From positions 104,966,001-105,030,000 of the forward strand of contig NC_043003.1 of NCBI RefSeq assembly GCF_006345805.1: a DNA stretch of 64,000 nucleotides, given 5' to 3'. Within the stretch, counting starts at the first letter, position 1; each line of letters starts with the position of its first letter. Below, in pieces: positions 32,701 to 35,700 of the stretch. The stretch comes from Octopus sinensis (taxonomy: Eukaryota). The position numbers and the translations under genes were made by a program. The notes below the pieces were generated by a model. It made no database searches. It was not told where the DNA came from and saw nothing but the letters and a program-made list of their open reading frames with translations.

Positions 32701-35700
32701 ACTATACGGCTGCGAGACGTGGACTGCTTACGAAGGCACGAGCGCCAGATAAACCACTTCCATCTCAGGTGTCTTCGGAATCTCCTTCACATCCGCTGGC
32801 AGGACAAAGTCCCAGACACGGAAGTTCTGAAGCAGGCAGATCTCCCTAGCACCATCACAATCATGCGCAAGGCCCAGCTGAGATGGGCGGGCCACGTCTC
32901 CCGCATGTCCGACACTCGCATCCCAAAACAGCTCTTCTACGGTGAACTCGGCCAGGGCAGGCGCAAAGTCGGAGGGCAGAAAAAGCGCTACAAGGATAGT
33001 CTCAAGGTCTCTCTCAAAGACTTCTCCATCGGAACAGAGACCTGGGAGACACTTGCTGCCAACCGCTCATCCTGGCGCAGCGCAATCACCGTGGGAGCAG
33101 GGACAGCCGAGGAGGGACGGATTCGGTCAGCGGAGCAGAAACGTCAGATGCGTAAAGTCAGAGCCGCCTGCACCAGTAGCACTGCCCCTACCCACTTCTG
33201 CCCCACCTGTGGGAGGGGCTTCCTTGCCCGGATTGGCCTCACCAGACACCTCCGGTCTCATGGCGGCGGTTCCATCAGATGATGTCAGTTGGTCATCTTC
33301 GAACCGAAGGACGAACATCATCATATATTTATATATATATATATAGTGGGAATTTACAAAGAAACAAAAGATGAAGACAAGTGTGTAAACAACAAACAGA
33401 TGTATTAGTTTAATGCTCGGGAAATGAGAAAGTCTTTTACGTTTCGAGCCTATGCTCTTCAACAGAAAGGAACACAGAAATGAACAGGGAGAGAAAATAA
33501 TAATAGTTTAGTGGCTAGGGATCTATCATGGCATATGCCGGACAGAGGAATCACACAGGAGAGCTAGGAAGAAGGGGAGATAATAAAGTAGAGGTGATCC
33601 TAAAACGAAGGTGAGAGTGTGTATGTGCATGTGGAAGGGGGCTGCTGACATTGACGTGTGCATGTGTAGGTGTGTGGATGATAGTGTAGGTGCTGGGAAG
33701 TGGTCAGTGCTAGTGTGTGCAGGGTGGTGTGATGTGGTGTGGTATGGTGGTGTGTGGTGTGGTATGGTGGTGTGGTGTGAGGTGTGTTGGTGTTGGTATG
33801 GGGAAGGTGAGTGGGGGAAGCGAGGGTGGGGGTCTAAGGGATGGGGTGGGATGGGATGTATAGGGATAGTGGGGTTGGAATGTGTAGGGGTAGGGTAACG
33901 CAGGAGGGGTGATGATGAAGGGAGAGGGTGGAAGGGAGAAGGTGGGTAGGAGTGAAGAGAGGTAGTGGGTGCCTGAACAAGATAGGAGAGGTGGGTGGGA
34001 GGAAGCAGGTGTGAGAGGAAGAGAGGAGAGGAGAGTTGAGCCCATGTGGCGCAAAAGAGCTAAGAGAGAAGATTAATCCCTGCTCACGGCAAAATGGGAG
34101 TCTGAATGGCCCCTGTGCAAGGACAATCTGAACACAGACAATTGTTGTTAAGAGTGACCAGGAGCTACAGTAGAAAGGAAGGATCTAGAGCAGAAAGGAA
34201 GGATCTACAGTAGAAGGGAAGGAATGACAGTAGTTGTAAGAGGGTAAGAGTAACTGAAGTGACTTACATTATTGAGCAGTTGAATGAGGGAACCAATCAA
34301 AATAAAAGCACCATGAATGCAACCGCATGGAGCGAAGAAAAGAAAATAGATGAAGTTGGCATGATTGAGGTAGCCACAGCAGGTGTTAATCCAGGGACAG
34401 TGATGATCCATTTTCATTACACACCTGCAATTAGAAACAATTAATATAACAAAAACTCAATAAAGATGTTACGTTTATATATTTGTTTTGCAAGATTCTT
34501 AATGTGAATTCATGTGTTGAAACAGATATTGCTGTATTTGGGGAGGGTCATGTTGCCAGTTTAGCCAATAAAAACACACACACTATATATTTGGTGTTCA
34601 TTTGCTTCAGCTTTTTTTTTATATTAATCCTATTTCGGCCAGAGTTCTTTCATCACACTTCTGTGACCTCATCAGTGGTCCTTTGCTTTCTTCTTTCTTC
34701 TGTATATGTGTCTCCCCTTACTAATGATATGCAAAAGGATCTACAAAAGAGCAGATCATTAGTAAGGAGAGACACACACATAAAAAAGAAAGAAGAAAGC
34801 AAAGGACCAGAGGTCACAGAGGTGTGATGAAAGAATATGATTAATATAAAATAAATCTGAAGCAAGTGAACACCAAACATATAGTGCGTGTGTTTTTATT
34901 GGCTAAACTGGCAACATGACCATCCCCAAATACATTAATAAAGATGACATAAAATCAAATAGATAATTAGTGATACCGTTAGAGAAATAGCACAGTCACA
35001 TGGGAGGAATCTACTCAGGGTAACACCTTTATGAGGGTAGCCCTTTTGGGTCTGCTATATACACTTGTAAATAAGGCGGCGAGCTGACAGACACGTTAGC
35101 GTGCCGGGCGAAATGCTTAGTGATATTTCGTCTGTCGTTATGTTTTGAGTTCAAATTCCACCGAGGTCGACTTTGCCTTTCATCCTTTCGGGGTCGATAA
35201 ATTAAGTACCAGTTACGCACTGGAGTCGATGTAATCGACTTAATCCCTTTGTCTGTCCTTGTTTGTTCCCTCTATGTTTAGCCCCTTGTGGGCAATAAAG
35301 AAATATATATATACACTTGTAAATAGGGGTGAAGTTAGGCAGCAAACTGAAGGGTCGCTCCTGGAGGCACACAGTCTAGCCACACCACTTTATTAGAGTT
35401 AGTGAATGTCTGTGGCAGATAAGAACTCAGAAATTATGTTTTGTTCCAATTCTTCATTCACTTTCTTTGCTCAACCTCCAGCAATAATAAATAAAACGGT
35501 TTGGAATAAATGAAGCACTTTGAGGATAAAGGACTGACTTGCTGACTCCATGGAGGCACAGGTGTGGATGTGTGGCAAGATGTTTGCTTCCCACCTGCAT
35601 GGATTCTTCAGGTTCAGTCCCACTGCATGGCACCTTGGGCAAGTTTCTTCTTCTACAGCCTCAAGTCAACTAAAGCCTTGAGAGCAGACTTGGTAGACGG

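Follow-up and report, generated by a model that had tools for sequence, protein, structure and literature searches.

Penelope-like elements (PLEs) account for 6.83% of the Octopus vulgaris genome according to the figure given in PMC13282606. Here we describe the 3' end of one PLE copy, together with the hammerhead ribozyme motif that it carries, in a 64,000-nucleotide stretch of Octopus sinensis DNA (NC_043003.1, positions 104,966,001 to 105,030,000 of the forward strand; hereafter the window). The closest described counterparts of this motif are the minimal type I hammerheads of metazoan PLEs, especially that of Acropora digitifera Neptune. As characterized in PMC4209133, these share with the octopus motif the position after the endonuclease open reading frame (ORF), a short helix I, an unpaired base between positions 9 and 10.1, the G10.1-C11.1 pair, a palindromic 15.2-16.2 and the lack of a loop 3, and they too occur mostly as single, truncated copies. 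Aligned with the coral-type motif, the octopus one is identical at 25 of 40 letters and helix II is nearly the same. It differs from the Acropora-type hammerheads in having U at core position 6, a cleavage triplet with A17 and a 3' untranslated region (UTR) of about 570 instead of about 100 nt. In Fig. S3 of PMC4209133 all 56 representatives have A6, although the descriptor that detected most of them was itself based on the standard catalytic boxes.

The Neptune and Nematis elements, as presented in PMC8557442, have a C-terminal endonuclease (EN) and resemble our element in the place of the endonuclease at the ORF end and in microsatellite insertion; their linker, GIY-YIG motif and reverse transcriptase (RT) are absent from the truncated octopus copy. 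The same source describes PLE insertions as strongly 5'-truncated, with a preference of Neptune-type elements for microsatellites, and Naiad endonucleases as similar to those of Neptune but N-terminal to the RT, unlike the arrangement seen here. Non-LTR (long terminal repeat) retrozymes, as outlined in PMC7229834 and bioRxiv 10.64898/2026.07.22.740005, likewise carry a type I hammerhead in short units related to PLEs, and the latter source derives them from PLE pseudo-LTRs. They are however tandem and non-coding, whereas the units in the window are single and one of them is attached to a coding remnant with endonuclease codons. Natural variants of the hammerhead core include A6C in phage Bcep176, U4C in viroids and U3-A8 in Schistosoma PLEs, as described in PMC3088659, PMC7151607 and PMC4209133, and like the octopus motif they combine a single change in the CUGA turn with an otherwise standard core. 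The Bcep176 variant is a single phage sequence, whereas the change reported here is to U and is common to an animal repeat lineage.

Identification of the endonuclease remnant

On the minus strand the remnant consists, in order, of an endonuclease C-terminus, a 3' UTR of about 565 nt, a minimal type I hammerhead and a tail that ends at a (TA)n tract. Its parts and borders are as follows.

34164-33346, minus: whole remnant, ascribed to the 5'-truncated 3' end of a PLE with C-terminal endonuclease (contig depth jump)
34094..34162, minus: GIY-YIG endonuclease C-terminus, segment 1, with an in-frame TAA at 34150-34148 (tblastn; phmmer)
34035..34085, minus: endonuclease C-terminus, segment 2, following a 1-nt deletion at about 34091-34093 (65 of 70 references)
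33470..34034, minus: 3' UTR rich in C, A and T, including at 33717-33811 a low-complexity stretch that resembles (CACCA)n (repeated in four of four runs; tandem repeat rows)
33434..33469, minus: minimal type I hammerhead, core CUGUUGA at 33465-33459, U6 at 33462, predicted cut between 33438 and 33437 (direct reading, descriptor, covariance model)
33346..33433, minus: 3' tail of the element, up to the (TA)n tract (alignment to copies 2 and 3)
33323..33345, unstranded: (TA)n microsatellite at the 3' end, likely the target site (tandem repeat finder)
34160..34223, unstranded: 20-nt tandem repeat, 3.2 copies, overlapping the 5' junction by about 5 nt (array differs in X9 and X10)

The remnant keeps the last ~43 or so endonuclease codons, interrupted by one stop and one 1-nt deletion; the GIY-YIG motif itself lies outside it, as the copy is truncated at about 34164. 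An earlier note on this DNA had read a minus-strand peptide in two pieces and had taken it for the C-terminus of a PLE GIY-YIG endonuclease. Translation reproduces both pieces, one from 34162 onward and the other, in the next frame, from 34085. As references we used 70 of 119 proteins, those with an intact G-x-N end. Segment 1 (34162-34094) was matched in tblastn by 69 of these 70 endonuclease C-termini (best linked E 6.3e-5), which bears the assignment out, and segment 2 was matched by 65 of them at 34085-34023, while the next-best place in the window reached E 0.08. The conserved H, E and N of the PLE endonuclease C-terminus align in the remnant. The two segments also outscore every other place among the window's approximately 127,900 six-frame positions (47 against 31 for the next best in segment 1; 41 against 29, over 127,894 positions, in segment 2), and they are spaced by 77 nt where the reference predicts 78. 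Segment 2 is an independent check because it was absent from the query that found the reference family. A profile search, whose profile could not cross the frameshift, gave only 4.2 bits, and we relied on tblastn and fixed-segment scores in its place.

A phmmer search of 1.84 billion representatives, in which the stop was entered as X, returned one match (P0003, E 3.7e-4), which carries the Pfam GIY-YIG domain and whose score is aided by internal repeats in the target. The relatives of this protein (120 listed of 1231) terminate in HFNLPNHS...CGLSLHQG...EQ.FIFQIGTLNP.GIN. The nearest endonucleases have a CX4CX2C linker and a CCHH-type GIY-YIG domain, and in one cluster member of the reference family RVT_1 lies upstream of GIY-YIG. 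Pfam gave no match for the two peptides, and the 2 and 14 candidates from word-index protein searches with them all had E above 10; such blanks are expected because the pieces are about 20 residues long. Contigs of the family have one extra base at 34091-34093 that restores the frame, and among the four amino-acid-changing codons tested the family majority letters lead to the reference residue in two (R to G at 34129, H to R at 34096).

In all, the stretch 34164-33346 is almost certainly the 5'-truncated 3' end of a PLE. By its sequence the remnant appears most like the Neptune group, although the clade cannot be fixed from a copy that has lost linker, GIY-YIG motif and RT. A Naiad-type PLE with N-terminal endonuclease was rejected by the domain order, since the endonuclease is followed by low-complexity UTR, hammerhead and element end and by no RT. 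An extension of a host exon or ORF was rejected as well, as the single-copy flank stops at 34165. The PLE link of the peptide is real, but it has been expected since 2014.

A minimal type I hammerhead with U at position 6

The core CTGTTGA begins at 33465, 570 nt past the last N codon (34035), which agrees with the earlier note's hammerhead with core CUGUUGA about 570 nt downstream of the peptide. Its minus-strand context is CTTT, CTGTTGA, A, GAGC-ATAG-GCTC, GAAACGTA, AAAG. Helix I is formed by 4 bp between CUUU (33469-66) and AAAG (33437-34), an extra A at 33458 follows A9, and helix II comprises the 4 bp GAGC/GCUC; GAAA comes next, then the palindrome ACGU replacing helix III, and then A17. 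The motif therefore has the parts that define the minimal type I hammerheads of PLEs, which are helices I and II, an extra base after A9, GAAA, a palindromic helix III and UH. It departs from the core consensus CUGANGA at A6: the base is U at 33462, and likewise at the corresponding positions 57894 and 30789.

A descriptor with positions 6 and 7 left free matched the window three times (33465 minus, 57254 plus and 14049 minus), against a mean of 0.03 matches per Markov-shuffled window (30 shuffles). The three top hits in the window of a covariance model built from 16 coral-type outgroup loci (see below) were 57254 plus (25.2 bits, rough E 4.5e-4), 33465 minus (16.9 bits, 0.056) and 57897 minus (15.3 bits, 0.14). 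Rfam reported no hammerhead among 108 window matches at E up to 1, and the exact hammerhead pattern of the family, with positions 6 and 7 free, had no match in metagenome, viral or genome contigs. Folding energies were uninformative: single-strand z-scores lay between -0.4 and -0.75 in five motifs, some of them canonical, and the active dimer was not the lowest-energy state for the U6 motif or for the canonical controls.

Position 6 in related copies

Three further loci in the window were compared with the remnant (copy 1).

57774..57966, minus: copy 2, limited to the 3' 190 nt, with core CUGUUGA at 57897 and a single helix I mismatch (blastn, alignment)
30686..30807, minus: copy 3, more diverged, core CUGUAGA at 30792 (blastn 79%; nhmmer E 1.5e-12; alignment)
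57250..57285, plus: related PLE-type 3' end with the canonical core CUGACGA, C3 at 57254 (descriptor; covariance model; nhmmer E 0.005 to the remnant 3' end)

Copy 2 is 82.9% identical to the remnant over 199 nt (blastn E 9e-51) and is bordered by (TA)n on both sides; it is the solitary 3' end with the A6U variant that had previously been noticed near 57777-57962. Copy 3 retains U6, its helix II and palindrome have decayed, and it lies in sense orientation within the DHHC gene that also hosts the remnant. The 5' ends differ, that of copy 2 (57966) aligning at about 33536 and that of copy 3 (30807) at about 33480. All three copies of the lineage in the window thus have U6 at a mutual identity of 76-83%. 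Since an independent A-to-T change in each of the three would be very unlikely, these sequences make it highly probable that A6U was inherited from the source element and is no copy-specific decay.

The canonical motif at 57250..57285 has the same helix II as the remnant, and in helix I a G-C pair where the remnant has C-G. It lies in the first of two sister PLE-type 3' ends with a CUGACGA core and a GAGC helix II arm; this one, at 57170-57400 (plus), ends at (TA)n, and the second, at 54743-54769 (minus), is decayed. A fold-back element at 13961-14390, with arms 79% identical, carries one hammerhead per arm, an intact one with CUGAUGA at 14049 on the minus strand and a decayed one on the plus strand; its structure is compatible with head-to-head PLE end pieces.

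As an outgroup we fetched 92 loci with a related endonuclease, of which 76 had the endonuclease end and at least 150 nt downstream. An aligned, homologous minimal hammerhead was present in 70 of the 76, at a median of 102 nt past the same endonuclease end; the other six gave no such alignment. The loci were called coral-type by their match to the Acropora motif, and the outgroup motif is the A. digitifera Neptune hammerhead of Cervera 2014, as given in Fig. S3 and Table S1 of PMC4209133. A strict descriptor found only 7 of the 76, with 2 on the reverse-strand control, because it required U4. No related loci were found in viral contigs. Animal PLE sequence (L081-L092) also turned up in contigs labelled as bacterial metagenome-assembled genomes, with 11 loci in one and 1 in another, and is probably host contamination.

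Position 6 of the 70 outgroup hammerheads is A in 69, G in one and U in none, in line with the expectation that A6 is normally conserved, whereas position 4 is C in 43, T in 26 and A in one. A coral-type, Neptune-like subfamily (L001-L092, for example L056, L072 and L090) has the core CCGACGA, that is U4C, and its copies seem able to lengthen helix I. We found no report of a U4C core in coral-type PLEs in the literature searched. To judge from the aligned cores, the CUGA turn has changed at one base in each of two related PLE lineages, and U4C in the coral-type family fits relaxed selection on this turn.

Repetition of the family and linkage of its parts

Repetition was gauged by the summed contig depth in four organisms (X1, X8, X9 and X10). 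Summed depth is not copy number, as short overlapping contigs inflate the values, and 33717-33811 was masked as low-complexity. The flank at 34243-34437 is single-copy, with summed depths of 47, 9.6, 54 and 6.8 across the four runs. From the bin 34126-34164 down to 33346 the depth climbs to thousands or more in every run, the masked stretch excepted. Relative to the flank it amounts to 5e2-1.4e3 at the 5' edge (34126-64), 4.5e3-1.2e4 at 34048-86 and 3.7e4-1.2e5 in the hammerhead bin. By this measure the family is highly repeated in all four organisms, and both the three window copies of different length and the depth gradient in all four runs show the dispersed repetition and 5' truncation of PLEs. 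The copy itself departs from the family majority at no fewer than 34 of 724 positions and is therefore an old, dead one. In X1 and X8 there are contigs that run across the 5' junction (34111-34500), which places the insertion in two organisms, although X1 is possibly the window's own sample.

The peptide and the hammerhead were further examined for linkage in other copies, which the earlier note had made a condition of its reading. Overlapping contigs extend over 33358-33613 and over 33812-34157. From 33613 joints lead on to 33684, and a joint in X9 connects 33480 to 33978 via 39 letters. Linkage is partly supported by these overlaps and the X9 joint; none of the listed contigs runs from one part to the other. 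Many contigs depart from the remnant sequence at 33472, with a common loose end that resembles copy 2.

Host gene and neighbouring elements

The remnant lies in sense orientation in an intron of a host gene, beginning about 100 nt past the donor site of the exon listed here.

34268..34424, minus: host exon with the DHHC motif of palmitoyltransferases (Pfam DHHC E 3.8e-13; PDB DHHC20 E 8e-10)

The gene spans about 8700-42700 on the minus strand in at least eight exon pieces. The DHHC exon has AG and GT borders, and further exons lie at about 42.6k, 36.2k, 24.8k, 17.8k, 16.1k, 11.9k and 8.8k. The encoded protein is extended at its N-terminus by a stretch rich in threonine, alanine and serine, and we take the gene to resemble ZDHHC6. 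The intron before the DHHC exon contains a second fold-back element (34527-34940, arms 80% identical) with a hammerhead-like stretch CUGAUGA...GAAA at 34675 on the minus strand.

A 5'-truncated, RTE-like long interspersed nuclear element (LINE) occupies 31975-33322 on the plus strand, with RVT_1, a C-terminal C2H2-like finger and two frameshifts. It stands between two (TA)n tracts, inserted in the (TA)n at the 3' end of the remnant and tail to tail with it. No target-site duplication of the remnant was seen when the sequence at 34165 was compared with that beyond the RTE-like element and the (TA)n. Elsewhere in the window there are near-identical duplicated blocks, one pair inverted (27005-27415 minus and 28170-28529 plus) and one direct (19825-20534 and 21403-22298). 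Both pairs show as twin ORF translations and are recent duplications or assembly artefacts.

Discussion

The account that we favour, and consider reasonably probable as a whole, is that the remnant is a dead, truncated PLE copy whose A6U change came from the source element and weakened cleavage while amplification continued. The element's RT would have copied its RNA from the 3' end at an AT-rich nick, in a target-primed manner, and would have halted early. Such early halting would leave mostly hammerhead-plus-tail pieces of 120-200 nt and fewer copies reaching the endonuclease. A6U would have arisen in the source element before the copies spread and probably reduces self-cleavage greatly. Amplification could proceed in spite of it because insertion uses uncleaved RNA, and the motif may survive as inherited pseudo-LTR sequence, perhaps also as a protein-binding fold. 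The host intron is probably unaffected, since a lone hammerhead copy cannot cut as a monomer.

Published catalysis, as far as the sources deal with it, points the same way. Minimal PLE hammerheads are reported in PMC4209133 to show no monomer cleavage and poor dimer cleavage. Natural A6C has a kobs under 0.1/min in the measurements of PMC3088659, and according to PMC7151607 its Mg2+ cleavage is strongly reduced and its preference moved to Mn2+. The single and double CUGA-turn mutants of PMC9901934 are low in activity, except for the C3G/G8C swap. The anole PLE hammerhead, as described in PMC11167929, depends on the element's protein to cut, and insertion by the PLE protein in vitro proceeds unaffected in hammerhead catalytic mutants. 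Craig et al. 2021 (PMC8557442) also raise the possibility that hammerheads simply parasitise PLEs. By analogy with these systems, cleavage in the U6 lineage is probably weak or dispensable. The earlier note's claim that the family tolerates a non-canonical core therefore holds for amplification; for activity, published changes at position 6 speak against it, as they strongly lower it.

Several observations weigh against this account. The cited catalysis papers measured changes other than A6U. Among the listed contigs none spans the endonuclease peptide to the hammerhead, the UTR of about 570 nt contrasts with about 100 nt in the outgroup, and the other two majority changes in the codons tested (S to P and S to R) miss the reference residue. 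Position 33462 is absent from the best 40 of 143 difference rows; the shares in these 40 rise to about 80% or higher in one or more runs, so that a sizeable share of A6 genome-wide is possible. Between copies 1 and 2 there are differences at 2 of 36 positions in the hammerhead as against 29 of 155 outside it (Fisher p 0.076), and the hammerhead is the depth peak in the highest bin of three of the four runs, or in all four by listed bins. Such conservation and such a peak could mean that the ribozyme still works.

The alternative that this suggests is that A6U is a working variant, in which dimers self-cleave at a useful rate with the aid of the element's protein or of Mn2+ and which selection has kept. 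Copies 1 and 2 have kept every other core position as well as helix II and the ACGU palindrome, and of the 34 majority differences listed within the element only one falls in the hammerhead, in loop 2; the protein-assisted anole hammerhead and the rescue of A6C by Mn2+ offer precedents. Nevertheless, position-6 and U-turn mutants have low activity, and the surplus of conservation is not significant and could equally reflect a binding role. The two U6 copies lying sense in one host gene are weak evidence either way. We regard a working variant as unlikely, albeit conceivable.

It is also possible, though we think it improbable, that the approximately 190-nt hammerhead-plus-tail is a separate non-autonomous family, resembling short interspersed elements or retrozymes, that PLEs mobilise in trans and in which alone A6U became fixed. 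The hammerhead depth of about 6 to 19 times that of 34048-86, the loose contig end shared at 33472 and the descent of non-LTR retrozymes from PLE pseudo-LTRs would all suit such a unit. However, the remnant carries U6 and runs on into endonuclease codons, copies 2 and 3 start at different 5' ends, and no tandem arrangement is seen in the window. The whole of 34164-33346 is repeated, with cover falling toward the endonuclease as heavy 5' truncation would give, so that no separate family is needed and truncated PLE ends are the best reading of the short copies. The same holds for the proposal in the earlier note that the peptide marks the autonomous partner of a distinct hammerhead family, which one heavily 5'-truncated PLE family makes superfluous. 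A coincidental peptide, or U6 arising independently in dead copies, is hardly credible and already largely refuted: the Pfam and word-index blanks and the lone, repeat-aided phmmer match would allow it, but the two segments are collinear, spaced as expected and each unrivalled in the window, U6 is found in three of three copies and the descriptor has a low false-positive rate.

The dead, truncated PLE copy of the favoured account is itself ordinary as an element, and its value lies in the core change. What is new is the lineage-wide A6U core together with the parallel U4C in a related family, both missed by standard descriptors; searches with the standard core consequently undercount PLE hammerheads. 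Lunse et al. 2017 reportedly catalogued some 150,000 PLE hammerhead variants. In the literature searched we found no report of an A6U hammerhead, and the catalogues of Lunse 2017 and Arkhipova 2017 may already list such cores.

A more far-reaching idea, which we hold to be rather doubtful, is that amplified PLE families with fixed changes in the uridine turn (A6U, U4C) are conditional ribozymes that cut only when given the element's protein or a particular metal. If this were true, the hammerheads of PLEs would make up a naturally occurring range of tunable, protein-gated ribozymes, and present catalogues would greatly understate their number and diversity. Either way, a U6 lineage at very high copy number constitutes a natural experiment on whether PLE transposition needs the hammerhead: if the U6 motif does not cut, the hammerhead would be dispensable in vivo, and if it does cut, the consensus of the hammerhead core would have to be widened.

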